Below, piece by piece: positions 3,081 through 47,213 of a stretch of 64,000 nt of DNA. Under the pieces are notes generated by a model. That model was given only the letters and a program-made list of their open reading frames with translations. It did no database searches and was not told where the DNA came from. Every line of letters starts with the position of its first letter. The stretch's first letter is position 1. The stretch is from sequence record MZ234025.1. One strand, 5' to 3'. The DNA comes from Escherichia phage vB_EcoM-172859UKE1. The translations under genes and the position numbers were made by a program.

Positions 3081-3106
3081 AAATTTTTCAACATGAGGAA
3101 TATAAA

Positions 3107-4042: not shown

Positions 4043-4046
4043 ATCA

Positions 4047-4076
4047 GTTTACAACCAAGGATGGTTGGAGTATAAT
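4047..4076 (+). promoter_or_regulatory. early promoter (PeSL-like): GTTTAC, hairpin CAACC-aaggat-GGTTG, TATAAT
   Basis: GTTTAC 4047-4052, TATAAT 4071-4076. Confidence 0.6.
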
Positions 4077-4104
4077 GAACCTATCTTAACGAGAGGAAAA
4101 TATT

Positions 4105-21106: not shown

Positions 21107-21670
21107 ATGAACTTATTCGATGATGACGTCCAGCTTAACGAGCACCAAATTGCATGGAAGTCTAATGACGCTGATGCGATTCAAAAATGTGCTGATATGT
21201 TTAAAGAAAAACCTGAGAATGAATTCTTTAAAATCATTAATGCTATTAATGAAAAGAAATCTATGTCAATTGCTCAGGTCGACTACTCAAAATTTATGGT
21301 TGAGAACTCATTATCCCAGTTCCCGGAATGTATGCCAGCTGTTTACATGATGAACTTAGTCGGTTCTGAATTAAGTGATGAAGCGCACTTCAACTATATG
21401 ATGGCGGCAATTCCACGTGGCCGACGATTCTCTAAATGGGCTAAACTAGTCGAAGACACTTCAGAGTTACTAGTTATCAAACTGTTGATGAAACATTACA
21501 CAATCAACATGAATGATGCTACTGAGTACAAGCGGCTCCTTGAAAAAAATAACAAGTTGCCAATAGTCCTTAAAGAACTGAAGGCCATGGTCACTGATGA
21601 GTTTCTCAAAGAAGTTACAAAAAATGTGAAAGAACAAAAACAATTTAAAAAATTAGCATTGGAATGGTAA
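21107..21670 (+). CDS. 62: clamp loader small subunit gp62
   Basis: 187 aa immediately after 44, as in T4. Confidence 0.85.
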
Positions 21671-21672
21671 AA

Positions 21673-22041
21673 ATGATTGAAATTAAATTGAAGAACCCTG
21701 AAGATTTTCTGAAAGTCAAAGAGACTTTGACCCGTATGGGCATCGCTAATAACAAGGATAAAGTCCTTTATCAGTCCTGTCATATCCTCCAAAAGCAAGG
21801 TAAATACTACATCGTCCACTTTAAAGAAATGCTGCGTATGGATGGACGTCAGGTTGATATTGACGGTGAAGACTATCAGCGACGTGATTCGATTGCTCAG
21901 TTGCTTGAAGACTGGGGATTGATTGTTATTGAAGACTCTGCTCGTGAAGATCTGTTTGGCCTGACTAATAACTTCCGTGTTATCTCTTTTAAACAGAAAG
22001 ATGACTGGACTTTGAAAGCAAAATATACAATTGGTAATTAA
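21673..22041 (+). CDS. regA: translational repressor RegA
   Basis: 122 aa; MIEIKLKNPEDFLKVKETLTRMGIANNKDKVLYQSCHILQK... near-identical to T4 RegA as remembered. Confidence 0.9.
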   Translation: MIEIKLKNPEDFLKVKETLTRMGIANNKDKVLYQSCHILQKQGKYYIVHFKEMLRMDGRQVDIDGEDYQRRDSIAQLLEDWGLIVIEDSAREDLFGLTNNFRVISFKQKDDWTLKAKYTIGN

Positions 22042-22045
22042 AGCA

Positions 22046-22066
22046 ATGGGACTTCGGTCCCATTTG
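22046..22066 (+). terminator. stem-loop/weak terminator after regA
   Basis: GGGAC-ttcg-GTCCC hairpin followed by ATTT. Confidence 0.5.
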
Positions 22067-22122
22067 GAGTATAATAAGTTCATCAACAAACAAAAGACAA
22101 TAACTCGTCTAAAGGAAATTAA

Positions 22123-24834
22123 ATGAAAGAATTTTACTTAACGGTTGAACAGATTGGTGATTCAATTTTTGAACGTTACATCGATTCTAATGGCCGTGAA
22201 CGTACTCGTGAAGTAGAATATAAACCATCACTGTTTGCTCATTGTCCAGAAAGTCAGGCTACGAAATATTTCGATATCTACGGTAAGCCGTGTACTCGTA
22301 AGTTGTTCGCTAATATGCGTGATGCCTCCCAATGGATTAAACGCATGGAAGATATCGGACTTGAAGCACTTGGCATGGACGATTTCAAATTGGCGTATTT
22401 GTCTGACACTTATAACTATGAAATCAAATACGACCATACAAAAATTCGTGTGGCTAACTTCGACATCGAAGTAACATCTCCGGATGGGTTCCCTGAGCCG
22501 TCACAAGCAAAACATCCTATTGATGCTATCACCCATTATGACTCAATTGACGACAGGTTCTACGTATTTGATCTATTGAATTCTCCATATGGTAATGTAG
22601 AAGAATGGTCTATTGAAATCGCTGCTAAGCTTCAAGAACAAGGTGGTGATGAAGTTCCATCTGAAATTATCGATAAAATCATTTATATGCCGTTCGATAA
22701 CGAAAAAGAATTGTTGATGGAATATCTCAACTTCTGGCAACAGAAAACTCCTGTCATTTTGACTGGATGGAACGTTGAGTCATTTGATATTCCATATGTG
22801 TATAACCGAATCAAGAATATTTTTGGCGAATCTACTGCGAAACGTTTATCACCACATCGTAAAACTCGTGTTAAAGTTATCGAAAACATGTATGGTTCTC
22901 GTGAAATCATTACATTGTTCGGTATCTCTGTTCTTGATTACATTGACCTTTACAAAAAATTCTCTTTTACCAATCAACCGTCGTATTCTCTGGATTACAT
23001 TTCAGAATTTGAATTGAACGTTGGTAAACTGAAATATGACGGCCCTATTTCTAAGCTTCGTGAAAGCAATCACCAACGATATATTTCTTATAACATTATC
23101 GATGTGTATCGTGTATTGCAAATTGATGCTAAGCGTCAGTTCATCAACTTGAGCTTGGACATGGGTTATTATGCTAAGATACAGATTCAATCTGTGTTTA
23201 GCCCAATTAAAACATGGGATGCTATTATTTTTAATAGCCTTAAAGAACAAAACAAGGTGATTCCACAAGGTCGTTCGCATCCAGTTCAACCTTACCCGGG
23301 TGCTTTTGTTAAGGAACCTATTCCAAATCGATACAAATATGTGATGAGCTTCGACCTCACATCTCTGTATCCAAGCATCATTCGCCAAGTGAATATTAGC
23401 CCGGAAACAATAGCAGGAACGTTTAAAGTAGCTCCACTGCATGATTATATTAACGCAATCGCTGAACGTCCTTCAGATGTGTACAGTTGCTCTCCTAACG
23501 GCATGATGTATTATAAAGACCGTGATGGTGTAGTTCCAACTGAAATCACTAAAGTCTTTAATCAACGTAAAGAACATAAAGGTTATATGCTTGCGGCTCA
23601 ACGTAATGGTGAAATAATTAAAGAGGCATTGCATAATCCTAATCTTTCTGTTGACGAACCATTAGATGTTGATTATCGTTTCGACTTCAGTGATGAGATT
23701 AAAGAAAAGATTAAAAAGTTGTCCGCTAAGTCTCTTAATGAAATGTTGTTTAGAGCTCAACGTACTGAAGTTGCAGGTATGACTGCACAGATTAACCGTA
23801 AATTGCTCATCAACTCACTTTATGGTGCACTTGGCAACGTTTGGTTCCGTTATTATGATTTGCGTAATGCTACTGCAATCACAACATTCGGGCAAATGGC
23901 TTTACAGTGGATTGAACGTAAAGTTAATGAATACCTGAATGAAGTTTGTGGTACAGAAGGTGAAGCTTTCGTTCTTTATGGTGATACAGACTCCATTTAC
24001 GTATCTGCGGATAAAATTATTGATAAGGTTGGTGAATCTAAATTCCGTGATACTAACCATTGGGTAGACTTCTTAGATAAGTTTGCACGTGAACGTATGG
24101 AACCAGCTATTGATAGAGGTTTCCGTGAAATGTGTGAATACATGAACAATAAACAACACTTAATGTTCATGGACCGAGAAGCTATCGCTGGTCCTCCGCT
24201 TGGTTCTAAAGGTATTGGCGGATTTTGGACTGGTAAGAAACGTTATGCATTAAACGTGTGGGATATGGAAGGTACTCGTTACGCTGAGCCTAAACTCAAA
24301 ATCATGGGTCTAGAGACTCAGAAATCTTCGACTCCTAAAGCAGTACAGAAAGCTCTTAAAGAATGTATTCGTCGTATGCTTCAAGAAGGTGAAGAATCAT
24401 TACAAGAATATTTTAAAGAGTTTGAAAAAGAATTCCGTCAATTGAATTATATTAGCATCGCGTCGGTATCTTCTGCGAATAACATTGCTAAATATGACGT
24501 CGGTGGATTCCCTGGTCCCAAATGCCCGTTCCATATTCGTGGAATTCTGACGTATAACCGAGCTATCAAAGGTAATATTGATGCACCACAAGTTGTAGAA
24601 GGTGAAAAAGTATATGTTCTGCCTTTACGTGAAGGAAACCCATTCGGTGATAAATGTATCGCATGGCCTTCTGGTACTGAAATCACAGATTTAATTAAAG
24701 ACGATGTACTTCATTGGATGGACTACACTGTTCTCCTTGAGAAGACATTTATTAAACCACTTGAAGGATTCACATCAGCAGCTAAACTCGATTACGAGAA
24801 GAAAGCATCTCTGTTCGATATGTTTGATTTTTGA
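22123..24834 (+). CDS. 43: DNA polymerase gp43 (family B)
   Basis: 903 aa; exonuclease FDIE, polymerase motifs SLYPS and YGDTDS. Confidence 0.97.
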   Translation: MKEFYLTVEQIGDSIFERYIDSNGRERTREVEYKPSLFAHCPESQATKYFDIYGKPCTRKLFANMRDASQWIKRMEDIGLEALGMDDFKLAYLSDTYNYEIKYDHTKIRVANFDIEVTSPDGFPEPSQAKHPIDAITHYDSIDDRFYVFDLLNSPYGNVEEWSIEIAAKLQEQGGDEVPSEIIDKIIYMPFDNEKELLMEYLNFWQQKTPVILTGWNVESFDIPYVYNRIKNIFGESTAKRLSPHRKTRVKVIENMYGSREIITLFGISVLDYIDLYKKFSFTNQPSYSLDYISEFELNVGKLKYDGPISKLRESNHQRYISYNIIDVYRVLQIDAKRQFINLSLDMGYYAKIQIQSVFSPIKTWDAIIFNSLKEQNKVIPQGRSHPVQPYPGAFVKEPIPNRYKYVMSFDLTSLYPSIIRQVNISPETIAGTFKVAPLHDYINAIAERPSDVYSCSPNGMMYYKDRDGVVPTEITKVFNQRKEHKGYMLAAQRNGEIIKEALHNPNLSVDEPLDVDYRFDFSDEIKEKIKKLSAKSLNEMLFRAQRTEVAGMTAQINRKLLINSLYGALGNVWFRYYDLRNATAITTFGQMALQWIERKVNEYLNEVCGTEGEAFVLYGDTDSIYVSADKIIDKVGESKFRDTNHWVDFLDKFARERMEPAIDRGFREMCEYMNNKQHLMFMDREAIAGPPLGSKGIGGFWTGKKRYALNVWDMEGTRYAEPKLKIMGLETQKSSTPKAVQKALKECIRRMLQEGEESLQEYFKEFEKEFRQLNYISIASVSSANNIAKYDVGGFPGPKCPFHIRGILTYNRAIKGNIDAPQVVEGEKVYVLPLREGNPFGDKCIAWPSGTEITDLIKDDVLHWMDYTVLLEKTFIKPLEGFTSAAKLDYEKKASLFDMFDF

Positions 24835-24874
24835 TATAATGCCAAGGACGGCCAACTAATTAAATGAGAGAAAT

Positions 24875-25510
24875 ATGAAAACTACTCCTATTACTATCGC
24901 TATTGACGCAATCGTAAAACAAGCTTCATCTCTTGCCACTATGGCTAAAGTAATTAGTCAAAACCCTGCTCGTTATAATGCTATTCTAGAAACTCTTCGA
25001 CGCCCTGGACTTAGTAATTATGAAAGCCGGGTAATTATTACAGGTGTTGGTAAGAATGCTAATATCGCAACTAAAGCTTCCGAGACTTTTGCTTCACTAG
25101 GTATTCCTAGCATGTATTTGAATACCGGGCATTATTCTCATGGTGACGCAGGATTTATTGCACCTAATGATGTATTAGTTCACATCAGTCGTTCTGGTAA
25201 GACTGAAGAAATGATAGGTGTTGCTAAACATCTTCGTATGATTCGTCCTCAGGTTAAACAGATTCTGTTACATTGTAACCCTGACATTCCACAAGAATAC
25301 GAAGCTCTTTTTGATTATACGTTCTGTACCGGTATCGCGGTAGAAGTTGACGAGAACTCTTTAGCTCCGACAATGTCCACTACATTGTTGTTAGCGCTTA
25401 TCGATACGTTCGCTATCAACCTTTCGTCTGAACGTGGATTTACCTCTAATGATTTCCTTAAGTTCCATCCAGGCGGTGCACTAGGTGCCATGTTACGAGG
25501 CGAACAATGA
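24875..25510 (+). CDS. SIS-domain sugar-phosphate isomerase (KdsD/GutQ-like arabinose-5-phosphate isomerase-like)
   Basis: 211 aa; ...TGVGKNANIATKASETFASLGIPS..., YSHGDAGF, ISRSGKTEE and C-terminal HPGGALG resemble SIS domain of A5P isomerases. Confidence 0.75.
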   Translation: MKTTPITIAIDAIVKQASSLATMAKVISQNPARYNAILETLRRPGLSNYESRVIITGVGKNANIATKASETFASLGIPSMYLNTGHYSHGDAGFIAPNDVLVHISRSGKTEEMIGVAKHLRMIRPQVKQILLHCNPDIPQEYEALFDYTFCTGIAVEVDENSLAPTMSTTLLLALIDTFAINLSSERGFTSNDFLKFHPGGALGAMLRGEQ

Positions 25511-25650
25511 AAGCAATAACAATAGGACTTTTACTATTGATGCTTGTCATGACTATCTACTGGAGCTTAACGGCTCCGGTAATGATTCCAACACTTGTAA
25601 TTGGATGGATTATGATTGGACTACAAGCAAAGTATGAATGCTTTAACTAG
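25507..25650 (+). CDS. possible small hydrophobic peptide
   Basis: 47-aa ORF with two hydrophobic stretches, ATGA-coupled. Confidence 0.3.
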   Translation: MKAITIGLLLLMLVMTIYWSLTAPVMIPTLVIGWIMIGLQAKYECFN

Positions 25651-25691
25651 AATAGTGTACAATACTCCTACTTACCAATGAGGACTTCAAC

Positions 25692-27377
25692 ATGAAAAAA
25701 GCTGTTATTCTTGGTGCTGGATTGGCAACTCGTTTATATCCAATAACGCATCATATTCCTAAGGTGCTTGTTAACTATAAACAAGACACTATTCTGAGCA
25801 ATTTGTATACAATTTATTCTGACCTTGGCGCAGATGAAATTATTGTAGTAGTTCATTCAAAATTTGCTGAAACTGTTCGAGCTTATTGTGAGCAAGAAGG
25901 GTTCAATGTGACTATTCGTACAGTTGATGAAGCGTATGGTTCTGCTTATGCTCTTGCTAAATTACACAAAGATTTAGACGGCCATAATGTAATTGTTAAC
26001 TGGTGTGATATTATTCCTGATTTTGGTTCATGGTCTTGGAATGTTAACGCAATCTATGTTAAGGGTGACGAATGTCGATATAATTTCGACGGTGAAAATA
26101 TCACTAACGTAGGTTCAACAGGTGGTAATGTTGTAGGAATTTATCAGTTCAAAGACTGGGAATTCTATATGGGTTCTACCGATGAGGAAATTCATGAATA
26201 CTGCAAAGGACGTGATTTCGTAGAATTCCTTTACAGCGGCGCATTCAATAAATCAGAGCTTATGAATATCATCGACCTTGGTGATATGCCTAAACTTGAA
26301 AAGGCCCATGAAGTTCGTGAACTGAACCGTAGTTTTAATGCAGTTGAAATTGGCGAAGAAACTGTAACTAAATTCGCATTAACCGAACAGGGTCGAGCTC
26401 TTCAGAAAGATGAGATTTCGTGGTATTTGAAAGTGAAATCAGATTCAGTTCCTCAGTTAGTTTCTGTTAATGAAAATAACTTTGAAATGGAACGCATTAA
26501 AGGTAAGCCGGCATTTGAATATATTAAATCAAAATCAAGTCTTGCTCGTCCACAAATTGTTGATGCAATTTTAGATGCACTGAAATTCAGCACAGACACT
26601 TATTTTGTAAGTCCTGAAACTGTTCGTCGTGATTTCACTAAAGAATTCTATACGAAAGTTATTGATCGTTGTGAAAGCATTCAACCATTGATTGATTCAT
26701 TTGGTAAAATCACACACGTGAACTACACTAAGATTGGACGTCTGAAGCCAATGCTGAAACAAGCTTTAGAACACCTTATTCGTTATCATAACCGTTCTCA
26801 GGGACAGTACTCTGTTATTCATGGTGACCCGAACTTCAGTAATACTATGATTACTGATAACGGCGAAGTCAAGTTTATCGACCCTCGTGGATATTTTGGT
26901 GAAACCAAGATTTACGGGCCAAAATTGTATGATGAAGCTAAAGTGCTTTATGCTGTTTCAGGTTATGATGAATTCAATGCTAATCCGACCTGGGGGCAGT
27001 TTACTATTGATGAAACAACTTGTAATGTGACTATTAACATCAATCCATTAGTTTACAAATATGGAAAGATGAGTTCGTTTAACGAGTATCATCATTTGGC
27101 AGTGGCAATTATCTGGATTGCATTAGGTGGTTATTTCAAGAATAATCCACTTAAAGCGGTAGCCGCATATTATAAAGGTATGGAACTTCTGACTAAGCAA
27201 TTACGTAACATGGGCCGTGTACTTCAAGACGGCTCTATTAGTTATGACGTAGCAGAACCTGTAACGGCTACTCTGATTACAAAAAATCCTGGTAAATGGG
27301 TACTAACTGATAAAGAAACTGGTGTTTCCTATCGTCCAATCGGTGGCGATATCACTCATCAATGGGAACGAATCTAA
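25692..27377 (+). CDS. bifunctional sugar-1-phosphate nucleotidyltransferase / kinase-like protein
   Basis: N-terminal AVILGAGLATRLYPIT (NTP-transferase G-x-G-x-R); C-terminal HGDPNFSN and IDPRG resemble APH/anomeric sugar kinase catalytic motifs. Confidence 0.7.
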   Translation: MKKAVILGAGLATRLYPITHHIPKVLVNYKQDTILSNLYTIYSDLGADEIIVVVHSKFAETVRAYCEQEGFNVTIRTVDEAYGSAYALAKLHKDLDGHNVIVNWCDIIPDFGSWSWNVNAIYVKGDECRYNFDGENITNVGSTGGNVVGIYQFKDWEFYMGSTDEEIHEYCKGRDFVEFLYSGAFNKSELMNIIDLGDMPKLEKAHEVRELNRSFNAVEIGEETVTKFALTEQGRALQKDEISWYLKVKSDSVPQLVSVNENNFEMERIKGKPAFEYIKSKSSLARPQIVDAILDALKFSTDTYFVSPETVRRDFTKEFYTKVIDRCESIQPLIDSFGKITHVNYTKIGRLKPMLKQALEHLIRYHNRSQGQYSVIHGDPNFSNTMITDNGEVKFIDPRGYFGETKIYGPKLYDEAKVLYAVSGYDEFNANPTWGQFTIDETTCNVTININPLVYKYGKMSSFNEYHHLAVAIIWIALGGYFKNNPLKAVAAYYKGMELLTKQLRNMGRVLQDGSISYDVAEPVTATLITKNPGKWVLTDKETGVSYRPIGGDITHQWERI

Positions 27378-27763
27378 TGCACCGTGTAGAAAACATGCTT
27401 AATCTTTGTTTTGATGTCGATGATTGTATAACAGAGTGGAATAACAATCGTGATTACGTGAACTTCAAACCAGACGTCGAAATGGTGTCTGCCATTAATG
27501 CTCTGTATGATGCAGGGCATACCATAACGCTTTACACTGCTCGCGGTATGAAGTCAGTAGGTCCTGGACGTATAGCAATTGACATTCTCCCAAGTCTGAT
27601 TCAGAACTTGGCAAACATTGGCTTGAAGTACCATAATTTGCTAACACATAAACCAGTATATGATTGGATTATCGACGACAAAGCTATGCGTCCTGACGAA
27701 TTCAAAGCTCTTATGAATAAAGGCGAATTCGAAACATTTAAACCATATAAACCGAATCTATAA
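27377..27763 (+). CDS. HAD-superfamily phosphatase
   Basis: FDVDDCIT (DxDxT motif I) near N-terminus; ~128 aa, size of KdsC/GmhB-type phosphatases; TAATG coupling. Confidence 0.7.
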   Translation: MHRVENMLNLCFDVDDCITEWNNNRDYVNFKPDVEMVSAINALYDAGHTITLYTARGMKSVGPGRIAIDILPSLIQNLANIGLKYHNLLTHKPVYDWIIDDKAMRPDEFKALMNKGEFETFKPYKPNL

Positions 27764-27820
27764 TAATTTAAGTAAGACATGCAAAAACCATCGCATCAAT
27801 TAACGCGAGACGCAAAATAA

Positions 27821-28981
27821 ATGAATACTTTTAAAATCGGAACGAATTTTGATTTAGCTCTTCTTGATAAAATCGTAGAGCTCAATAAAACTTATCCTAA
27901 TAGCTTGATAAATGAAGTATACGGCTCTACAAGAGAAATGGCTTTTGTAGCAGCCAGACCTGATTTTAGGCTTCCTGACGTTGACAAAAAGATGTTAGAA
28001 GATTACGTTAAACGTTGTAACGAATTAGGTATTTGCTTTAACTATACACTCAACACGATAAATCCTGGTTCAAAAAGAGAACTAGTTGAGTGGAAGAAGA
28101 AAGCTATTCAGGATTATGTTCAGTATCTTTGGTCAATAGGCGTATGGCGTATTACTATCGCTAACCCTGTTGTTATGGAAATTGTTCGTGAAGTCAATAA
28201 AGACATTGAGATTGAAGTTTCAACAATTCTACATGTCGATGCTGTAACTCAAATCAAATACTTGCATGACCAATATAATATCAAAAAGGTCTGCTGTGGA
28301 ATTCATAAGAACCGTTCAGTTTCTTTCCTGAAGCGTGCAGCAGAGTTTTGCAATAAGAACAATATAATATTTGAAGTTCTTGTAAATGAGTTCTGTTCTA
28401 ATGCTGGTAAAGGGTATACAACACATTGTAGCTATCGTGACTCTTGCTATATTTTCCATAGTACTGATGTTACAGCTGATGATGCTAAATCCTTAAACGG
28501 ATATCCTATGCAGCACTGTATTAAAGCTCGTGATACAGACCCATTTAACTGGTTGAGAACTCGTTTTGTTCGTCCTCAAGATTTGAAACTTTATAATGAT
28601 ATTGGTATCACTCAATTCAAAGTTTCAGGACGTACAGGTAGCACAGACTACATTTTGAAAGTTCTTGAAGCATACGCTTCTGAAAAGTTTGAAGGTAATT
28701 TGTTAGAACTGTGGAAGCCTTTAGAGACTATTTTCACTCTTGAAAACGAAACTGAGTTTTCACATACAGTAAATATTGAAACCTCTTTGTTAGATGGCTT
28801 TTTAGAAAAAAGGTGGTTCAGACATCCAGATTTCGATTGTGCTAATGAAATCTGCGGGACGACGTGTACATATTGTGAAAGATATTATAAACGTCAATTA
28901 TCTAAAAACGGGTTAGCAGAAAACTCTATATCTATTATTGATATAACTAACTCTGATGACGCTTTGAGGTACCCGGAATGA
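27821..28981 (+). CDS. U32-family-like Cys-rich protein (possible Fe-S enzyme)
   Basis: 386 aa; FNYTLNT, EVLVNEFCS...HCSYRDSC, FKVSGRTGS resemble U32 motifs; C-terminal CxxxCxxxCxYC. Confidence 0.55.
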   Translation: MNTFKIGTNFDLALLDKIVELNKTYPNSLINEVYGSTREMAFVAARPDFRLPDVDKKMLEDYVKRCNELGICFNYTLNTINPGSKRELVEWKKKAIQDYVQYLWSIGVWRITIANPVVMEIVREVNKDIEIEVSTILHVDAVTQIKYLHDQYNIKKVCCGIHKNRSVSFLKRAAEFCNKNNIIFEVLVNEFCSNAGKGYTTHCSYRDSCYIFHSTDVTADDAKSLNGYPMQHCIKARDTDPFNWLRTRFVRPQDLKLYNDIGITQFKVSGRTGSTDYILKVLEAYASEKFEGNLLELWKPLETIFTLENETEFSHTVNIETSLLDGFLEKRWFRHPDFDCANEICGTTCTYCERYYKRQLSKNGLAENSISIIDITNSDDALRYPE

Positions 28982-29061
28982 TTTCTAGAAAAACTTTTAA
29001 CCACCAACTTAATGAAGAGATTTTGACTATGAAACTGAACACTAATGACCAAATTCTTAAA

Positions 29062-29083
29062 CAGGCCCATCAGGGCCTGTTTG
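29062..29083 (+). terminator. GC-rich stem-loop (possible terminator) at the 3' edge of the sugar module
   Basis: CAGGCCC-atca-GGGCCTG perfect 7-bp stem followed by TTT. Confidence 0.35.
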
Positions 29084-29218
29084 AAACTAAAGCGGCTAAA
29101 GTGATTAAAGAAACCTGTTCAATTGGAATACTACGCTGATGCATTTCTTCATAGTGTTCTTGGAAGTATCGATGCTGAAGCTTTACGTTATATCAACATT
29201 GTCAAGAAATTCAAATAA

Positions 29219-29241
29219 GCTTTACGAATTGAGTATATAAT
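29219..29241 (+). promoter_or_regulatory. possible MotA-type middle promoter for gene 42
   Basis: GCTTTA 29219-29224, 11-bp spacer, TATAAT 29236-29241. Confidence 0.35.
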
Positions 29242-29260
29242 AAATTGTATTGAGGTAAAC

Positions 29261-29977
29261 ATGGGAAAACATAACACAATGAAATATATCAAAGCCGCAG
29301 ATTTTCAAACCGCATTTAAAGCAGTCAATCGTGAAATTTTAGAAAACCCGGAATTCGTAACTGATTCTCGTATTGGACGTTGTAATGAAATTGGGTCTAT
29401 GACAGTAGTTGTTGACACTCCATCATCATTCAAAATGACCGACCCACGTATTAACCGCATCTCTTATGAATATGCCGAAGACTTCTGGAAGTTTATGATT
29501 TCTGGTGGTACCAACGCAGAAGAAGCGTTTAAGGCATATCCTAATGTCGCTAAATTTATTTCTAAACCAAAATCAGATGTTTTGCCGGCGAACTTCAACA
29601 CTTTCTATGGTCCTCGCATTGCGGCCCAATTACCAGCTCTTCTAAAAGAACTTAAAGAGAAGCCTAACTCCCGAAGAGTTGTGTTCCAAATTCTAGAAAG
29701 TTCTGATCAGGCTTTGCTTGATTCAGACGAAACGCTTGAATATCCATGTACTGACTCAGTGACTTATTATATTCGTGATGGTAAGCTTTATACCCACTGT
29801 CATATGCGTTCTCAGAACTGTGCTGTTGTTATGCAGTTGGATTTTTATCTCCAAGGAAAATTACTTCATTATATCGCTAACGAATGTGGTGTAGAAGTTG
29901 GTGATTATACTCATACCATGGTAAGTGCCCATGTGTTTGAACGTGATTTTGATTATGTTAAAGGATTCCTTGACTAA
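29261..29977 (+). CDS. 42: dCMP hydroxymethylase gp42
   Basis: 238 aa thymidylate-synthase-fold protein; catalytic region EYPCTDSVTYYIRDGKL...HMRSQN parallels T4 gp42; lacks TS PCH motif. Confidence 0.85.
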   Translation: MGKHNTMKYIKAADFQTAFKAVNREILENPEFVTDSRIGRCNEIGSMTVVVDTPSSFKMTDPRINRISYEYAEDFWKFMISGGTNAEEAFKAYPNVAKFISKPKSDVLPANFNTFYGPRIAAQLPALLKELKEKPNSRRVVFQILESSDQALLDSDETLEYPCTDSVTYYIRDGKLYTHCHMRSQNCAVVMQLDFYLQGKLLHYIANECGVEVGDYTHTMVSAHVFERDFDYVKGFLD

Positions 29978-30876
29978 TGGCTATTTTCCGCGTACCTATT
30001 TTGAGTATGCGGTCTTATGAAACTGGACAGTATGCTATCCTTAAGGATGGCAACTTCCAACTTCATTTGCACCGTGCTAATCCGGGTGATGTGATTACAT
30101 ATCCACGTAATGCATCTGATATTAAAGAATGCGAACGTCTTTTTCCAGAATTTAAGTTTGTTCCATTATGGTATAAAGATAACGCGTATAACACTCGTAA
30201 ATATTTCTGGTCTGAAAATGAATTTGTGGTTGATTCATTAATTGCTTATTATGATTGTGATTTTCTAATCACAGATATCACTGGATATGACGGCGCTTTT
30301 GATGTAGAATTCAATTTCAATATCACTGCAGACCCTAATAAACCACGTTTTTATATTGACGAATTCTTAAAAACCGATATGTTGTCGGTTAATCGTTCAC
30401 TTCAAACTACTGTGTTGAATGAACGTCAAAAAGAAGTGCTGGTTAACGCAGGTGCAGATGGTAATAAGATTATCGTAACACAGAAAGTTATACGTCCTTC
30501 CATCATGCAGCGTCTTGTAGGTGATTTGGCTCCTATTCATCTAGATGGTATTTTTCATCCATTTCGAATTAGTGACCCATGCTATCGTTTTGAACAAGTG
30601 GTTGAATGTGCAATTCAATTAGGTCAACCGCTTTATATAACCGATCCAAATAATAGCTTCGACAGAAATAAGTATCCTGAAGAAGCGCTGATTCGAATTT
30701 TTAAACCAACTAAAACTGAGTACTATCAAATTCTTAAAGGACGTCCGAAGATTCAATATTTCGAAAATCCTGAAGAAGTATTCCATCCAGGTCTTGGCGA
30801 GTTCATCTACTTTAATGCTTTAATTTCTTCGCCGTATAATATACCTAAATACGAAGATGTTGTAATCGAGGAATAA
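29977..30876 (+). CDS. hypothetical protein occupying the beta-glucosyltransferase locus (candidate DNA sugar transferase)
   Basis: 299-aa ORF ATGA-coupled to gene 42; no similarity recognised to T4 beta-gt. Confidence 0.6.
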   Translation: MAIFRVPILSMRSYETGQYAILKDGNFQLHLHRANPGDVITYPRNASDIKECERLFPEFKFVPLWYKDNAYNTRKYFWSENEFVVDSLIAYYDCDFLITDITGYDGAFDVEFNFNITADPNKPRFYIDEFLKTDMLSVNRSLQTTVLNERQKEVLVNAGADGNKIIVTQKVIRPSIMQRLVGDLAPIHLDGIFHPFRISDPCYRFEQVVECAIQLGQPLYITDPNNSFDRNKYPEEALIRIFKPTKTEYYQILKGRPKIQYFENPEEVFHPGLGEFIYFNALISSPYNIPKYEDVVIEE

Positions 30877-30877
30877 A

Positions 30878-31426
30878 ATGGCTAAAATTATTTTAGTAGA
30901 TGGCCCGGATAATGCTGGTAAAACAACTTTCATTAATGACATAATGGAAATTAGTGAAAGATATGTAAAGATTGATTTCCCTAAAAGAACGGTTGATGGA
31001 CGTTTCGATGTTAAGTCTCGAAATGAAGTTGGCTGTTTCGAAACGATGTTGAATTATTTAGACCCTACTAAGATTTATCTATTAGACCGTGGATATATTA
31101 GTAACTGGGTTTATGGACGTATTCGTCAAGATGCGGACTCGGTTCTTGACGTTTATGAACAGGATTATGTTCGTCTTTGCCAAAACCATGATGTGTTCAC
31201 AATTATTTTAACACGTAACGAAATGACTGAAAGTTTTGAAGACGACCTTATTACTTTGTCTTCATTCGGTTTTAATACAGTCATTTCACATTTTGAAGAG
31301 TTTGCAATTCATAACAAAATCCAAACGTATCAATTACTTAATCATGATGGTGCTAACAAAGTTATAGGATTTAATGCAAGCGAACGTAATGATTTGATTA
31401 CAGAAATCATCAAATGGGCTCGTTAA
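30878..31426 (+). CDS. P-loop kinase (NMP/sugar kinase-like)
   Basis: N-terminal Walker A GPDNAGKTT and LDRGY region typical of small P-loop kinases. Confidence 0.6.
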   Translation: MAKIILVDGPDNAGKTTFINDIMEISERYVKIDFPKRTVDGRFDVKSRNEVGCFETMLNYLDPTKIYLLDRGYISNWVYGRIRQDADSVLDVYEQDYVRLCQNHDVFTIILTRNEMTESFEDDLITLSSFGFNTVISHFEEFAIHNKIQTYQLLNHDGANKVIGFNASERNDLITEIIKWAR

Positions 31427-31444
31427 GAGCCATTTAAAGTTTTA

Positions 31445-31471
31445 AATGCTGTATAACCCTTAGTATATAAT
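31445..31471 (+). promoter_or_regulatory. possible MotA-dependent middle promoter for uvsX
   Basis: AAATGCTGTA (one mismatch to MotA box), 12-bp spacer, TATAAT 31466-31471. Confidence 0.35.
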
Positions 31472-31524
31472 CATCTTATCTTTTAAACATGAGTAAAATA
31501 TAATGATGCCTATGGAAAAATACA

Positions 31525-32697
31525 ATGTCTGATTTAAAATCTCGTCTGATTAAAGCTTCTACTTCTAAAATGACTGCAGACTTGACTAAGTCTAAGCTGT
31601 TTAATAATCGTGATGAAGTCCCTACTCGTATTCCGATGTTGAATATTGCATTAGGTGGTGCACTGAATGCAGGGTTGCAATCAGGCTTGACTATTTTTGC
31701 TGCACCTTCTAAACATTTTAAAACATTGTTTGGACTGACCATGGTTGCAGCATATATGAAGAAATATAAAGATGCAATTTGTTTGTTCTATGATTCAGAA
31801 TTTGGTGCTTCAGAATCTTATTTTCGTTCAATGGGTGTTGATTTAGACCGTGTAGTTCATACTCCGATTCAATCTGTCGAACAACTTAAAGTTGATATGA
31901 CTAATCAGCTTGACGCGATTGAACGCGGTGATAAAGTTATTATCTTTATCGATTCAATCGGTAATACTGCATCTAAGAAAGAAACTGAAGATGCATTGAA
32001 CGAGAAAGTTGTAGGTGATATGTCTCGTGCTAAGGCACTTAAATCTCTTTTCCGTATTGTGACCCCGTATCTGACTATTAAAGATATTCCGTGTGTTGCA
32101 ATTAACCATACCGCAATGGAAATTGGCGGATTGTATCCTAAAGAGATTATGGGCGGTGGTACAGGTATTCTTTATTCTGCCAACACAGTGTTTTTTATCT
32201 CTAAACGTCAGGTTAAAGAAGGTACAGAATTGACCGGTTATGACTTCACGTTGAAAGCAGAAAAATCTCGCACTGTTAAAGAAAAATCTACTTTCCCAAT
32301 CACGGTTAATTTTGATGGTGGTATCGACCCATTCAGCGGCTTGCTAGAAATGGCAACTGAAATTGGTTTTGTAGTTAAGCCTAAAGCTGGTTGGTATGCT
32401 CGCGAATTCCTTGACGAAGAAACAGGTGAAATGATTCGTGAAGAAAAATCATGGCGTGCTAAAGCTACTGATTGTGTAGAATTCTGGGGACCTTTGTTTA
32501 AACACAAACCTTTCCGAGATGCAATTGAAACTAAATATAAACTAGGTGCTATCTCTTCTATTAAAGAAGTTGATGACGCTGTTAACGACCTTATTAATTG
32601 CAAAGCAACAACTAAAGTTCCGGTTAAAACTTCTGATGCTCCGTCTGCAGCAGATATAGAAAACGACCTTGACGAAATGGAAGATTTCGATGAATAA
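31525..32697 (+). CDS. uvsX: recombinase UvsX (RecA-like)
   Basis: 390 aa; MSDLKSRLIKASTSK... and Walker A GPSKHFKT closely match T4 UvsX. Confidence 0.95.
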   Translation: MSDLKSRLIKASTSKMTADLTKSKLFNNRDEVPTRIPMLNIALGGALNAGLQSGLTIFAAPSKHFKTLFGLTMVAAYMKKYKDAICLFYDSEFGASESYFRSMGVDLDRVVHTPIQSVEQLKVDMTNQLDAIERGDKVIIFIDSIGNTASKKETEDALNEKVVGDMSRAKALKSLFRIVTPYLTIKDIPCVAINHTAMEIGGLYPKEIMGGGTGILYSANTVFFISKRQVKEGTELTGYDFTLKAEKSRTVKEKSTFPITVNFDGGIDPFSGLLEMATEIGFVVKPKAGWYAREFLDEETGEMIREEKSWRAKATDCVEFWGPLFKHKPFRDAIETKYKLGAISSIKEVDDAVNDLINCKATTKVPVKTSDAPSAADIENDLDEMEDFDE

Positions 32698-33031
32698 TCT
32701 CGATGATTTAAATCTAGAAATCGTTGATGAATCCCCTTCTTCGGAAGGGGAAGACATTCGCAAAGAACGAGTGTTTAATGAATCTCTTAAAATTGTCCGT
32801 TCAGCAATGGAAAATGTCATTCAAGAGATTCTGATTACACTTGAAGACGGTTCTCATCATATAGTCTATATTACAAAACTAGACTGGGTTGATGGTAAAA
32901 TCGTAATGGACTTTGCAGTTCTTGACCAGGACAGAAAATCAGAACTTGCACCACATGTTGAAAAATGTGTTACAATGCAAGTACAACAAGCTTTTAATGA
33001 ACGAACCAAGAAAAAATTTAAATTCTTTTAA
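32690..33031 (+). CDS. hypothetical protein at the position of gene 40
   Basis: 113-aa ORF between uvsX and 41; start taken at first ATG (track start is TTG). Confidence 0.5.
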   Translation: MNNLDDLNLEIVDESPSSEGEDIRKERVFNESLKIVRSAMENVIQEILITLEDGSHHIVYITKLDWVDGKIVMDFAVLDQDRKSELAPHVEKCVTMQVQQAFNERTKKKFKFF

Positions 33032-33040
33032 GGAGTTATC

Positions 33041-34483
33041 GTGGTAGAAATTATTTTGTCTCATCTAGTATATGACCAGGCTTATTTTTCTAAGGTCTGG
33101 CCTTATATGGATTCTGAGTATTTTGAGCGTGGACCGGCAAAAAACGTCTTTAAAATTATAAAGAGCCACGTTAACGAATATAATGCAATGCCATCTATCA
33201 ATGCATTAAAGGTGGCTTTAGATAACAGTTCTTTAACTGAAGCCGAATATAAAGGAACTTCAGACCTAATTGAAAAATTGGCTGATACTCCTGAAGACCA
33301 CGAATGGTTGGTTAAAGAAACTGAGAAATATGTCCAGCAAAAAGCGATGTATAATGCTACATCCAAAATCATTGAGATTCAGTCTAATGCTGAACTACCT
33401 CCAGAACAACGTAACAAGAAAATGCCTGACGTAGGAGCTATTCCTGATATTATGCGTCAAGCACTTTCAATTTCGTTCGATAGTTATGTTGGACATGACT
33501 GGATGGAAGACTACGAAGCACGCTGGCTTTCTTATCTAAATAAAGCACGTAAGGTCCCGTTCAAATTAAACATTTTGAATAAAATCACTAAAGGTGGTGC
33601 TGAAACAGGTACACTGAATGTTTTAATGGCTGGTGTTAACGTTGGTAAATCTTTAGGCCTTTGTTCACTCGCTGCAGATTATCTTCAAACAGGTCATAAT
33701 GTTCTTTATATTTCCATGGAAATGGCTGAAGAAGTTTGTGCTAAGCGTATAGATGCAAACATGCTTGACGTATCACTCGATGATATCGATGATGGTAACG
33801 TATCTTATGCTGAATATAAAGCCAAGATGGAAAAATGGCGTTCAAAATCCACATTAGGACGTTTAGTAGTTAAACAGTATCCTACTGGTGGAGCTAATGC
33901 TAATACATTTCGTGCATTGCTTAATGAGTTAAAACTTAAGAAGAACTTTGTGCCATCTGTAATCATGGTTGATTACTTAGGTATTTGTGGGTCTTGTCGT
34001 ATCAGAGTTTACACTGAAAATAGCTACACCTTAGTTAAAGCTATCGCAGAAGAACTTCGTGCATTAGCAGTAGAATCTGAAACAGTTCTATGGACTGCAG
34101 CTCAAGTAGGACGTGCAGCATGGGATGCTTCGGATATGAACATGAGCGATATTGCAGAATCAGCAGGTTTACCAGCAACAGCAGATTTCATGTTGGCCGT
34201 AATTGAAACCGAAGAACTTGCACAAGCTGAACAACAACTTATCAAACAAATCAAATCACGATACGGTGATAAGAATAAGTGGAATAAATTCCTGATGGGT
34301 GTACGTAAAGGCAACCAGAAATGGATTGAGATTGAGCAAGAAGGCATGAACACACCTAACACAGTAAATGAAAACGCAGGTGCTCAGATGCGTCAGGCAG
34401 AGGTGAATCGTACGGAACGCGTAGGTAAAGCCAAAGCAACACGTGCTGACCTAGATAGCTTAGCCAATGAGTTAAAATTTTAA
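33041..34483 (+). CDS. 41: replicative DNA helicase gp41 (DnaB-like), GTG start
   Basis: 480 aa; MVEIILSHL..., Walker A GVNVGKSLG; first codon GTG 4 nt after AAGGAG. Confidence 0.95.
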   Translation: MVEIILSHLVYDQAYFSKVWPYMDSEYFERGPAKNVFKIIKSHVNEYNAMPSINALKVALDNSSLTEAEYKGTSDLIEKLADTPEDHEWLVKETEKYVQQKAMYNATSKIIEIQSNAELPPEQRNKKMPDVGAIPDIMRQALSISFDSYVGHDWMEDYEARWLSYLNKARKVPFKLNILNKITKGGAETGTLNVLMAGVNVGKSLGLCSLAADYLQTGHNVLYISMEMAEEVCAKRIDANMLDVSLDDIDDGNVSYAEYKAKMEKWRSKSTLGRLVVKQYPTGGANANTFRALLNELKLKKNFVPSVIMVDYLGICGSCRIRVYTENSYTLVKAIAEELRALAVESETVLWTAAQVGRAAWDASDMNMSDIAESAGLPATADFMLAVIETEELAQAEQQLIKQIKSRYGDKNKWNKFLMGVRKGNQKWIEIEQEGMNTPNTVNENAGAQMRQAEVNRTERVGKAKATRADLDSLANELKF

Positions 34484-34488
34484 TAAAA

Positions 34489-34512
34489 AGGAGACTTCGG
34501 TCTCCTTTCGGG
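34489..34512 (+). terminator. stem-loop/terminator after gene 41
   Basis: GGAGAC-ttcg-GTCTCC hairpin followed by TTT. Confidence 0.55.
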
Positions 34513-34542
34513 GTTTACATCTTCCTCTAGGCATGATATGAT
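34513..34542 (+). promoter_or_regulatory. early promoter GTTTAC / TATGAT
   Basis: GTTTAC 34513-34518, 18-bp spacer, TATGAT 34537-34542. Confidence 0.5.
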
Positions 34543-34571
34543 GAACTTACCCCAACCAAGAGGAAAACATT

Positions 34572-34946
34572 ATGAATATGTCTCAAGCAATTTTTACTGC
34601 AATCACCGAAAACACAACTGTTGAAGTAGTTTCTCCACTGGCAACCTACGTTATTCTTGCTCCTAAAACTATTGTATCTCGTATGGAAAACACAGGCAAA
34701 CGTATCGTACAAATAGTTGGAGCCGGAAATCAAAAACTTGATTATCTACGAACCATCAAAGCTTATGAACATTTCCAACTCGAAAAAGGTTCTCCTATTC
34801 AGGTAGAACTCGTAAATGGTGATATCGTTCGAGCAATGTTCCATCATTTCTATGCATTGAATGACCCATCTAAAGCGGTTCGTTTAATTGCATACGATGC
34901 AAACCAAAACGAAATCAACGCAGATATATCTAAATTACGTTTTTAA
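34572..34946 (+). CDS. hypothetical protein
   Basis: 124-aa ORF after AGAGGAAAACATT RBS. Confidence 0.5.
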   Translation: MNMSQAIFTAITENTTVEVVSPLATYVILAPKTIVSRMENTGKRIVQIVGAGNQKLDYLRTIKAYEHFQLEKGSPIQVELVNGDIVRAMFHHFYALNDPSKAVRLIAYDANQNEINADISKLRF

Positions 34947-34995
34947 GTTTACTTCTCCAGTAGTTGTGTTATTATAGACCTATCAACTACTGGAG
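34947..34995 (+). promoter_or_regulatory. early promoter (PeSL-like) with 12-bp inverted repeat CTCCAGTAGTTG/CAACTACTGGAG enclosing -10
   Basis: GTTTAC 34947-34952, TATTAT 34970-34975; 28 bp (34968-34995) identical to 1431-1458. Confidence 0.6.
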
Positions 34996-35001
34996 AACAA
35001 A

Positions 35002-35319
35002 ATGAAAACCATCGATTGTAAAGCAGAATTTAAGATTTTTTATCACGGTTCAAGTAGTTCAGCTAACATCGAAAACATGCTTTGTCCTCCTGAGGAAACA
35101 GGAGTTCTGTCTGAAACTGGACGTAAGAAAAACTTGGATCGTGTATTCTTTACTGAAGATATAGGTTTAGCAAAGATTTATGCAGGACGAGCAGCACGCT
35201 CTTATGGAGGTGAACCACGTCTCTATCGAGTAATTTCTCCGGTAGATGTAGTTCAAATGAATGATACTAAAGGTGCTACAGTTTATCACGCTGAATGGGC
35301 ATTTTGCGAGGAAATATGA
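35002..35319 (+). CDS. hypothetical protein
   Basis: 105-aa ORF. Confidence 0.5.
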   Translation: MKTIDCKAEFKIFYHGSSSSANIENMLCPPEETGVLSETGRKKNLDRVFFTEDIGLAKIYAGRAARSYGGEPRLYRVISPVDVVQMNDTKGATVYHAEWAFCEEI

Positions 35320-35504
35320 GCAAATTAACTAAAGTTACTTTTATTGGCTGGTTTAAAAATGATAATATGTTCACTAAAGATATCATGTTATCAGGCGACC
35401 GTGAAGAAATCGAGTGGGTTGCGGTACAACTCGCTGAAGTGAACAGTGCACTTGTTAAAGCATTTCTTAATGATGAGAAAGTTTTCGAAGCAGATTTTCG
35501 ATAA
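35316..35504 (+). CDS. possible Dmd-like antitoxin
   Basis: 62-aa ORF (MSKLTKVTFIGWFKNDNMFTK...) next to gene 41 region where T4 has dmd; resemblance from memory only. Confidence 0.45.
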   Translation: MSKLTKVTFIGWFKNDNMFTKDIMLSGDREEIEWVAVQLAEVNSALVKAFLNDEKVFEADFR

Positions 35505-35517: not shown

Positions 35518-35547
35518 GTTTACAAGCACCACATACTGTGTTACTAT
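35518..35547 (+). promoter_or_regulatory. early promoter GTTTAC / TACTAT
   Basis: GTTTAC 35518-35523, 18-bp spacer, TACTAT 35542-35547. Confidence 0.55.
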
Positions 35548-35575
35548 CTTTCTATCAACTACAGAGGAAATTGAA

Positions 35576-35944
35576 ATGAAAAAATTAATCGCTTTAGCAA
35601 TGGTATTTGGATTAACCGGATGTGGTGCCCATGGCTTTATCCCTAATAACGTTGGCCAACTGATTTACAATCCGAATGTTAAACAATATGAACAACCTAA
35701 AGTTGAAGTGGAAGACCCGGTTACTGTAGGTAATCGAATGATTCAAGCTGATGCTCATGCTCAACGTTATCGTGATTCTGATACTGTAGCATTGTCAAAA
35801 GAACAACGCGTTAAAGAACATTGCTTACAGGCTACTGAAATCGCATTCATTCGCTATGTTGAAACAACCGGTAAAGAGCCTACCCAGAAACAAATCGCGA
35901 ATAACTACGTCCAGTGTATTGAACGTTTAAACAAATTTAATTAA
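35576..35944 (+). CDS. lipoprotein
   Basis: Signal peptide with lipobox LTGC (MKKLIALAMVFGLTGCG). Confidence 0.6.
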   Translation: MKKLIALAMVFGLTGCGAHGFIPNNVGQLIYNPNVKQYEQPKVEVEDPVTVGNRMIQADAHAQRYRDSDTVALSKEQRVKEHCLQATEIAFIRYVETTGKEPTQKQIANNYVQCIERLNKFN

Positions 35945-35947
35945 TTG

Positions 35948-35977
35948 GTTTACACCAAAGTTAAAACAAGATACTAT
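35948..35977 (+). promoter_or_regulatory. early promoter GTTTAC / TACTAT
   Basis: GTTTAC 35948-35953, 18-bp spacer, TACTAT 35972-35977. Confidence 0.5.
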
Positions 35978-36005
35978 AAACATAACAAATCAAGAGGAAA
36001 TTAAC

Positions 36006-36254
36006 ATGGAATTATTCGTAGCTAGTTCAGTAGCAGTTTTAATCGCAGGTATTGGTTCAATCATCATTTACATGTTGCCTTGGGTAATCGCACTTATTCG
36101 TGGCACAAAAAGCACAACAGCAATCTTCTTCGTATCTTTACTCTTTAACTGGACGATGGTTGGTTGGATTGGAACTTTAATTTGGTCTATCGTTGCCGAA
36201 AAGAAATCTGCTCTACAGCCTCAACAAGTAATTATTATTCGCGAAAAAGAATAA
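36006..36254 (+). CDS. superinfection immunity protein (Imm-like membrane protein)
   Basis: 82 aa, two TM helices; YMLPWVIALIRG...NWTMVGWIGTLIW fits Imm superinfection-immunity family pattern. Confidence 0.6.
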   Translation: MELFVASSVAVLIAGIGSIIIYMLPWVIALIRGTKSTTAIFFVSLLFNWTMVGWIGTLIWSIVAEKKSALQPQQVIIIREKE

Positions 36255-36259
36255 ACTTG

Positions 36260-36294
36260 TTTACATTATAGATGGACTATAGTATAGTAGTCCT
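36260..36294 (+). promoter_or_regulatory. early promoter GTTTAC / TATAGT with inverted repeat GGACTA/TAGTCC
   Basis: GTTTAC 36260-36265, TATAGT 36284-36289. Confidence 0.55.
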
Positions 36295-36317
36295 ATCAAA
36301 TCAACTAAGGAGTTAAA

Positions 36318-36611
36318 ATGAAAAAGTTATCATTGGCAGCAATCTTACTTGCAGTATCATGTGCACCGGCTCCAGTTACGGCAGGTTATGATAAAGACCT
36401 CTGTGAGTGGTCAATGACTGCAAATCAAGAAGATGTTGAACAACAAATCTTCTCTGATATCATGAACATCACTAAACGAGACCGTCCTAATATGGTTAAT
36501 AAAGTTGTTGAACAACTTAAGTCTGGCGGTAACATGCAGTACAACTATGTTTTGTATTGTGACCCTAATTTCGATAACAAAGATATCGTAACCGAAATCA
36601 CAGGTGAATAA
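36318..36611 (+). CDS. secreted protein, possible Spackle-like
   Basis: 97 aa with cleavable signal peptide; size and locus match T4 sp, sequence identity not verified. Confidence 0.45.
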   Translation: MKKLSLAAILLAVSCAPAPVTAGYDKDLCEWSMTANQEDVEQQIFSDIMNITKRDRPNMVNKVVEQLKSGGNMQYNYVLYCDPNFDNKDIVTEITGE

Positions 36612-46127: not shown

Positions 46128-46132
46128 AATCA

Positions 46133-46162
46133 GTTTACAACCAAGGACGGTTGGAGTATAAT
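46133..46162 (+). promoter_or_regulatory. early promoter (PeSL-like) GTTTAC, hairpin CAACC-aaggac-GGTTG, TATAAT
   Basis: GTTTAC 46133-46138, TATAAT 46157-46162. Confidence 0.6.
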
Positions 46163-46192
46163 CTTTCTATCTTAACCAAACGGGAAACAATT

Positions 46193-46687: not shown

Positions 46688-46690
46688 TGT

Positions 46691-47204: not shown

Positions 47205-47213
47205 GGAATTATT

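Follow-up and report, generated by a model that had tools for sequence, protein, structure and literature searches.

Short repeated intergenic cassettes that carry an early promoter, known as PeSLs (promoter-early stem-loops), have been described in T4-type phages (Arbiol et al. 2010, PMC2839356; Comeau et al. 2014, PMC4122927). Each combines a σ70-type early promoter with a stem-loop and is followed by a Shine-Dalgarno (SD) sequence and a start codon. The cassettes flank single genes, and a crossover between two copies deletes or inserts the gene that lies between them. In the canonical PeSL the stem-loop is placed upstream of the -35 hexamer and has the role of a terminator. Degraded 'half-PeSLs', in which one promoter hexamer or the stem is missing, have been found next to rearrangements (PMC2839356, PMC4122927). 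A related unit, the PmSL of phage nt-1, joins a MotA-box promoter to a stem-loop (PMC4122927), and the MotA-dependent middle promoters of T4 follow the consensus (a/t)(a/t)(a/t)TGCTTtA-N11-13-TAtaAT (PMC1524935, PMC2988021).

In this work we have compared these systems with the short sequence that follows gene 43 in a 64-kb window, by which we mean the whole stretch of DNA that was analysed. The window belongs to an RB69-like Mosigvirus. Over the 43-42 region it matches Escherichia phage APCEc01 at 98.6% identity, and RB69 together with some 150 further Mosigvirus records at about 96-98%. The genes on the + strand run in the order gp44, gp62, regA, gp43, a SIS isomerase, a 47-aa membrane ORF and the remaining sugar genes, and continue with a short ORF049c homologue and a thymidylate-synthase-like 'gene 42':

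22123-24834, + strand: gene 43, DNA polymerase (ORF list; annotated as DNA polymerase in the RB69-like matches)
24832-24834, + strand: stop codon TGA of gene 43
24875-25510, + strand: SIS-domain sugar-phosphate isomerase, homologue of RB69 gp55 (Pfam SIS, E 8e-10; RB69 annotation)
25507-25650, + strand: small membrane ORF of 47 aa, RB69 ORF054c-like (tblastn against T4, translations)
25692-27377, + strand: 561-aa nucleotidyltransferase fusion (Pfam)
27362-27763, + strand: 133-aa protein (ORF in the sugar cluster)
27821-28981, + strand: 386-aa peptidase-U32-like protein (Pfam)
28978-29139, + strand: ORF049c homologue
29261-29977, + strand: gene-42-like thymidylate-synthase homologue, counterpart of RB69 gp48 (Pfam; tblastn against T4)

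The last of these products has only about 25% identity to T4 gp42 (tblastn), and RB69 gp48 has been reported to be a 5-hydroxy-dCMP synthase and not a dCMP hydroxymethylase (PMC13326640). According to the same 2026 paper (PMC13326640), the RB69 gp45-gp55 cluster makes arabinosylated 5-hydroxycytosine, and the homologue of gp55 is the first gene of the NDP-arabinose pathway.

Between 24834 and 24875 the sequence is intergenic and leads into an SD sequence and a start codon, with these parts:

24832-24840, + strand: TGATATAAT, stop codon plus TATAAT, readable as an extended -10 (TGnTATAAT)
24835-24840, + strand: TATAAT hexamer
24841-24852, + strand: GCC-AAGGAC-GGC loop remnant, with a 3-bp stem and a 6-nt loop
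24853-24874, + strand: leader and SD region CAACTAATTAAATGAGAGAAAT of the SIS gene

Read from the end of gene 43 the order is thus TTT TGA, TATAAT, GCC AAGGAC GGC, CAACTAATTAAATGAGAGAAAT and ATG; the SIS start codon is at 24875, with GAGAG just 5' of it. The initial annotation had described TATAAT and GCC-AAGGAC-GGC right behind the gene 43 stop, with no proper -35, and the sequence bears out both points. A two-hexamer scan finds no promoter at 24835-24874; the TATAAT sits in the slot of a -35 and the -10-like hexamers downstream of it are poor. Consensus scans for promoters and terminators returned nothing at the 43-SIS junction, their overall counts being no higher than in shuffled sequence, and no Rho-independent terminator (a T run behind a GC-rich stem of 5 bp or longer) was called after gene 43. 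This accords with the predictions of Nolan et al. (2006) for RB69, in which no early promoter falls within coordinates 20971-42465 and no terminator within 24056-35357. With a permissive threshold, the search of 21500-30000 against Rfam yielded nothing beyond a chance match below threshold, at 29046-29077. Taken alone, the 3-bp stem is not significant (-3.6 kcal/mol, z -0.9). The post-43 element is most likely neither a terminator nor a structured regulator.

Extended -10 promoters (TGnTATAAT) are recognised by σ70 in E. coli without a -35 hexamer. In its letters TGATATAAT resembles them, since it has a TG one base 5' of a perfect TATAAT and no recognisable -35, 35 nt upstream of the start codon; it departs from the usual case in that its TG belongs to the stop codon of gene 43. 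Promoter activity of TGATATAAT is possible on this resemblance.

How does the element vary among close relatives? In nine Mosigviruses the junction reads TGATATAAT-G[C/A/T]C-A[A/T]GGAC-GG[C/T]-[C/A]AACTAATTAAATGAGAGAAAT-ATG. All four variable sites (24842, 24845, 24852 and 24853) fall in the hairpin part and none shows a compensatory change, while TGATATAAT is invariant, as is the leader with its SD except at position 24853 (C/A). The three variant types other than that of the window each lack one or more Watson-Crick pairs, without compensation; the RB69 form, GTC-ATGGAC-GGT, has no predicted fold, and in RB69 and most Mosigviruses the stem is absent or made of wobble pairs only. Judged from this alignment, the Mosigvirus stem is not maintained and is drifting. 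The 43-SIS junction is the same in all 153 matching Mosigvirus records; 14 of them match the window's 80-mer at 99% identity or more, and in 100 the identity is 90-95%, the band of the ATGGAC/GGT forms.

The loop of the element recurs elsewhere in the window, in five intact cassettes:

1996-2020, + strand: GCTTTA (MotA box), ACCC-AAGGAC-GGGT, TATAAT
3052-3080, + strand: TGTACA, CAACC-AAGGAT-GGTTG, GAG, TATAAT; left junction of a 996-nt indel
4048-4076, + strand: TTTACA, CAACC-AAGGAT-GGTTG, GAG, TATAAT; right junction of the 996-nt indel
46134-46162, + strand: TTTACA, CAACC-AAGGAC-GGTTG, GAG, TATAAT; left junction of a 557-nt indel, approximately RB69 Pe:8947
46691-46719, + strand: TGTACA, CATCC-AAGGAT-GGATG, GAG, TATAAT; right junction of the 557-nt indel, approximately RB69 Pe:8387

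These promoters share the form (T)TTACA or GCTTTA, stem, AAGGAY, stem, (GAG)TATAAT, so that a hairpin of 4-5 bp occupies the spacer from the -35 (or MotA box) to the -10, and every one of them begins a few bases past a stop codon. A search of the 64-kb window for AAGGA[C/T] within a perfect stem of 3 bp or more found six sites on the + strand and none on the - strand, with loop starts at 2005, 3061, 4057, 46143, 46700 and, for the post-43 element, 24844. About one would be expected (64 loop occurrences x 1/64). The claim that the post-43 loop is that of the promoter hairpins was therefore confirmed, the five other sites being promoters after stop codons without exception. With the wider pattern A[AT]GGA[CT] nine sites were observed, against a mean of 2.7 in shuffles of the whole window. 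The remnant has the 10-mer CCAAGGACGG in common with the sites at 2005 and 46143, a score reached in 6-11 of 1000 shuffles, and the exact CCAAGGACGG occurs in 64 kb at these three places only, each time in the context of a promoter cassette. The intact cassettes share up to 27 identical nucleotides with one another; the remnant shares only this 10-mer, with two of them.

We compared the junction with 28 loci around the gp43 C-terminus (IMG/VR) and with RB69, JS98, PEi20 and T4. A complete cassette stands right after the gene 43 stop in Dhakavirus, EcS1, PEi20, Serratia CHI14 and Pectobacterium PM2. In Dhakavirus it reads TAA-gTGTTTACA-TACCAC-A[T/A]GGAAC-GTGGTA-TTAT, the JS98-type loop being ATGGAAC, and in the Dhakavirus locus L007 the hairpin is CCAC-AAGGAAC-GTGG. 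EcS1 has TTTGCTT-CCAC-AAGGAC-GTGG-TAGTAT, PEi20 the hairpin CCAC-AAGGAT-GTGG, CHI14 the sequence GTTTACA-ATACCAC-AAGGAT-GTGGTAT, and PM2 ATATCAC-AAGGAT-GTGATAT. The hairpin of PEi20 is stable and is followed by U-rich sequence (-13.2 kcal/mol, z -3.1). In Dhakavirus the gene that the cassette drives is imm; elsewhere it is a lipoprotein gene, imm.1-like or other. In the 12-kb loci of other genera all intergenic hairpins of the cassette type are post-43, except for one upstream in L024. The loop of the relatives lies within 2 nt of the remnant's offset from the same stop codon, and the proposal that the element is the remnant of a promoter-hairpin cassette is supported by these complete cassettes of sister genera, which carry the A[A/T]GGA(A)Y loop in exactly this position.

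For an analysis of covariation, 12 intact cassettes were assembled: the five of the window (1996-2020, 3052-3080, 4048-4076, 46134-46162 and 46691-46719), the post-43 sites of loci L002, L003, L006, L007, L011 and L015, and L024 3522-3545. In this set 89% of cells are paired, both sides change in five of seven pairs, and the loop is conserved. The covariation score was 0.725 compared with 0.225 in shuffles, none of 500 shuffles reached 0.725, and slid controls scored far lower. Such strong covariation of the stem around a conserved loop indicates that the intact hairpin is a selected structure.

The intact cassettes resemble PeSLs in being short repeated intergenic units with a promoter and a stem-loop ahead of an SD and a start codon, in flanking single genes, and in having both hexamers of the PeSL promoter. 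They differ in geometry, with the hairpin between -35 and -10 instead of upstream of the -35, and in a loop, A[A/T]GGA(A)Y, that is conserved across genera and has no T run after it. What we describe is a variant arrangement, in which the promoter spacer contains a hairpin whose stem is supported by covariation and whose loop is conserved. Where the box is of the GCTT type, as at 1996-2020 and in EcS1 and PEi20, the sequence is reminiscent of the PmSL of nt-1; that unit belongs to a different phage group and its hairpin is placed differently. The remnant at 24835-24853 departs from the PeSL further, as it has neither a -35 (TTGACA/TTTACW about 17 nt from the -10) nor a stable stem. With moderate confidence, we would place it, as a degraded copy, in a family of PeSL-like cassettes.

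Rearrangements between intact cassettes can be followed to the base. The matches of some Mosigviruses extend over no more than about two thirds of window 45700-47300 or 1700-4400. Phage JK45 (locus L046) lacks exactly 557 nt between the cassettes at 46143 and 46700, and G2469 (locus L047) lacks 996 nt between those at 3061 and 4057. Each retains one hybrid cassette, whose left flank is that of the upstream copy and whose right flank is that of the downstream copy, and the crossovers of both indels fall inside CAACCAAGGATGGTTGGAGTATAAT. The premise of the initial annotation that cassettes act as recombination junctions therefore holds elsewhere in this genome, at intact cassettes. This extends PeSL-type modular shuffling to Mosigvirus with base-level breakpoints, a modest extension of a known concept. 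The 557-nt indel carries a motB-like paralogue and the 996-nt indel a gene annotated as thioredoxin or hypothetical. JK45 (NC_054940.1, a Shigella phage) is placed in Tequatrovirus by RefSeq taxonomy, yet its 43-SIS region is 98.5-100% identical to that of the window. At the 43-SIS junction no indel occurs among the 153 matching Mosigvirus records; between genera the gene content changes right after the element.

It may be that the A[A/T]GGA(A)Y-loop hairpin in the promoter spacer is a distinct functional module of at least six genera of arabinosylating Tevenvirinae and doubles as a preferred crossover point, the post-43 slot being an ancient exchange site whose Mosigvirus form is extinct. We hold this wider proposal to be rather unlikely as a whole. 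A phage protein could recognise the hairpin; alternatively, the hairpin could form an RNA element that belongs to the 3' end of the cistron before it.

We hypothesize, with a probability of roughly 0.6, that the element at 24835-24853 is a decayed copy of the compact promoter-hairpin cassette that sister Tevenvirinae keep intact, and not the edge of a recently acquired module. The homology of remnant and cassette is suggested, with moderate confidence, by short matches and by correspondence of position. The intact plan is a stop codon, a -35 or MotA box, the hairpin with its A[A/T]GGA(A)Y loop, a -10, a leader, an SD and ATG. In the Mosigvirus lineage the imm or lipoprotein gene downstream would have gone, and the SIS gene now abuts gene 43; the cassette would have lost its -35, and its stem, reduced to 3 bp at most, would now be drifting. 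Selection would retain TGATATAAT, as stop codon and extended -10, together with the leader and SD. Today the element most likely serves as an intercistronic spacer in transcripts that read through from gene 43; possibly TGATATAAT is also a -35-independent candidate promoter for the arabinose genes, with a start near 24847.

Several observations speak against decay from such a cassette. The order of the parts is permuted, with TATAAT upstream of the hairpin, where the -35 belongs. In a MAFFT alignment of the intergenic regions the Mosigvirus TATAAT pairs with the -10 of the relatives and not with the -35 slot, which would imply that -35 and hairpin were deleted and that AAGGAC is something else. 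Recombination of one cassette with another yields an intact hybrid, so that additional decay has to be assumed. Lastly, a clean excision would call for a second cassette between the lipoprotein gene and SIS, and the lipoprotein-bearing relatives have none before SIS; there the two genes overlap.

The fate of the genes next to the slot bears on the same history. Imm follows gene 43 in T4, JS98 and Dhakavirus, and the T4 order is 43, terminator, Pe, imm.1, imm, an unannotated small ORF and 42. In the window the imm genes are found elsewhere:

35519-36254, + strand: early promoter (TTTACA at 35521) with the imm.1 and imm region
35576-35944, + strand: imm.1 homologue (Pfam Imm_superinfect/DUF5481 support for the imm pair)
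36006-36254, + strand: imm (Pfam Imm_superinfect/DUF5481 support for the imm pair)

The pair (tblastn E 1e-15 and 5e-31) lies about 10.7 kb beyond the 43-SIS junction and is flanked by a dmd-like ORF and an sp-like gene (window 35519-36611), each of the two imm genes having a separate TTTACA promoter; JS98 has 61.4 in the slot where the window holds imm.1/imm. The variable slot extends from 43 to the small ORF and is filled by imm.1 and imm in T4, by imm in JS98, by a lipoprotein gene and SIS in PEi20, EcS1 and CHI14, and by SIS alone in Mosigvirus and TG1. In Yersinia TG1-type phages SIS overlaps the gene 43 stop, leaving no spacer. The event at the left junction is more likely a loss or relocation of imm-type genes than an arrival of sugar genes; the direction of the relocation is one that we infer.

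Could the element be no remnant at all? It might be a short spacer with the extended -10 promoter TGATATAAT and an SD, in which the AAGGAC loop and 3-bp stem resemble the cassettes by chance or convergence. This is the strongest of the alternatives, although we think it improbable. The energy of the remnant stem is within chance, most Mosigviruses have ATGGAC and no Watson-Crick stem, and the MAFFT pairing of TATAAT with the -10 of the relatives fits a plain spacer. On shuffling alone, the 8-mer in common with EcS1 fails to reach significance (106 of 1000). Local alignments of the remnant to PEi20, CHI14 and the window's own imm.1 promoter were not significant. The motif TGNTATAAT, with seven sites on the + strand including the post-43 site, also precedes other genes in the window and is not enriched overall (8 sites against 7.2 expected). 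Against chance likeness stand the three exact copies of CCAAGGACGG, always in promoter context, the loop of the relatives, whose offset from the gene 43 stop differs by 2 nt at most, and the SIS leader, which also resembles the Dhakavirus post-43 leader CAACTAC..GAGGAAAT (score reached in 17-39 of 1000 shuffles). It is this combination of match and position that leads us to prefer a decayed cassette.

Is it possible that the element is what is left of a transcription terminator, of the kind that T4 has behind gene 43, and not of a promoter-spacer hairpin? In T4, TGATAGAAT stands right behind the gene 43 stop and is followed by GGACC-TCCA-GGTCC with a T run; T4 and the window both have TGATAnAAT and AGGAC; and the hairpin of the PEi20 type with its U-rich tail implies that hairpin and terminator roles may overlap. 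However, only the 5-mer AGGAC is shared with the T4 stem, the window has neither the 3' arm nor the T run, the local alignment with T4 is not significant (252 of 1000 shuffles), and the match to the AAGGAY cassettes, a 10-mer, is longer. We therefore consider a terminator origin quite improbable. The T4 sequence TGATAGAAT (locus L032, reverse strand) is one base off the Mosigvirus TGATATAAT, which is perhaps a coincidence or an older common feature.

More had been made of the element in the initial annotation, which saw in it and in the sequences near gene 42 the two cassette borders of a sugar module inserted between 43 and 42. Intact cassettes do bound gene-sized indels in Mosigvirus, the gene content 3' of the post-43 cassette does vary among genera, and T4 is without the sugar genes. 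Nevertheless, acquisition of the module through cassettes at both borders was not borne out, and we now give it very little credence. The SIS gene, the small ORF and the genes of the 561-aa, 133-aa and 386-aa proteins have homologues between 43 and 42 in most of the T4-like genera sampled, and the sugar genes have diverged about as much as the flanking core genes (amino-acid identity across genera 42-89%, compared with 63-80% for gp43C and 60-83% for gp42). Syntenic arabinosylation clusters have been reported from Mosigviruses and, beyond them, from ten or more groups of Straboviridae (PMC13326640). The GC content of the module is 0.35-0.40 against 0.34-0.38 in the flanks, with no step at either border, and the cluster continues beyond gene 42. 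The small ORF at 25507-25650 is homologous to the unannotated T4 ORF between imm and 42 (tblastn E 5e-11) and has matches in most other loci too; since a T4-homologous ORF sits inside the 'module', the difference from T4 is not a single insertion. No Mosigvirus without the module was seen among the matching records, nor, among the 153 junction-matching records, an empty site with a single hybrid cassette in a close relative (above 90% identity in gp43 and gp42). The traits of an island are thus missing here: the module is not patchy among the Mosigvirus matches, its composition is even, and its borders are unlike each other. By all these comparisons the sugar (DNA-arabinosylation) genes are old and common to many relatives, with no recent acquisition, and the tempting inference that they were inserted at two motifs is removed for RB69-like phages.

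The 47-aa membrane protein encoded by the small ORF is conserved from Mosigvirus to T4 (locus L032) and reads MKSKIIAALLLILMIIISIYYSVTVPLMIPTIILGWSLLLLQVKYECIN. At the 3' end of this ORF, at about 25637-25663, there is a middle-promoter-like TGCTTTA..TACAAT, which corresponds to RB69 Pm:29842.

The right border holds two features:

29057-29084, + strand: 12-bp GC-rich hairpin TTAAACAGGCCC-ATCA-GGGCCTGTTTGA (-20.2 kcal/mol, z -4.7)
29219-29241, + strand: MotA-type middle promoter of the gene-42-like gene, with GCTTTA at 29219-29224, 11 nt, and TATAAT at 29236-29241

The GC-rich hairpin and the GCTTTA/TATAAT pair reported for this edge are indeed present, but the promoter is a good one of the MotA type and not degenerate, and the hairpin is no intergenic cassette: it lies within the ORF049c homologue, about 135 nt upstream of the gene-42 promoter. 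No terminator was called by scan at 29057-29084 and none is predicted there in RB69. The promoter is conserved in nine Mosigviruses and corresponds to RB69 Pm:26264 (Nolan et al. 2006). Its GCTTTA-N11-TATAAT fits the T4 MotA consensus; unlike that consensus it has A and not T before GCTT, and it has no cassette hairpin. Neither feature has anything in common with the left element, and in other genera an intergenic element before gene 42 is absent, most of them having no intergenic space there.

Least probable of all is a functional small RNA hairpin, for example one that acts in the processing or stability of the mRNA, or as an operator in the translation of SIS. In its favour, the SIS start codon follows 22 nt after the hairpin, transcripts from gene 43 probably read through this part, and the AAGGA loop is SD-like; against it, the stem is unconserved with uncompensated pair losses, RB69 has no fold, the SD is not sequestered and there is no Rfam match. 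Two analogies were also dropped: that with RegB (GGAG), as the remnant has no GGAG, and that with the gp43 operator, as the remnant is downstream of gene 43 and not upstream. For annotation, the 43-SIS junction is best described as a spacer between cistrons that may hold an extended -10 promoter, and not as a terminator or the border of a mobile element.

The hairpin at 29057-29084 varies among Mosigviruses. Its loop is ATCA in the lineage of the window and TGAT or TTAT in eight other Mosigviruses, ATCA being the reverse complement of TGAT. Six of nine phages have an A.G mismatch in the hairpin, which is repaired in the window by an A-to-C change and in phiE142 and G2285 by G-to-T instead. From its sequence, the change looks like a quasi-palindrome templated mutation. 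The ORF049c homologue around it has 79 aa in RB69, NBG1, Shf125875 and WFK, 49 aa in G2285, and 53 aa in the window, JS09 and DCP548, where there is one extra A (at about 29111). Since its length varies while the nucleotide sequence is about 97% conserved, the coding status of the 3' part is doubtful; the truncated 53-aa query had no detectable match outside Mosigvirus.

Several early promoters of the window, at 34952-34996, 36270-36300, 56860-56900 and 57375-57410, have long inverted repeats across the -10, for example CTCCAGTAGTTG...CAACTACTGGAG at 34952-34996, and GGACTA..TAGTCC around TATAGT.
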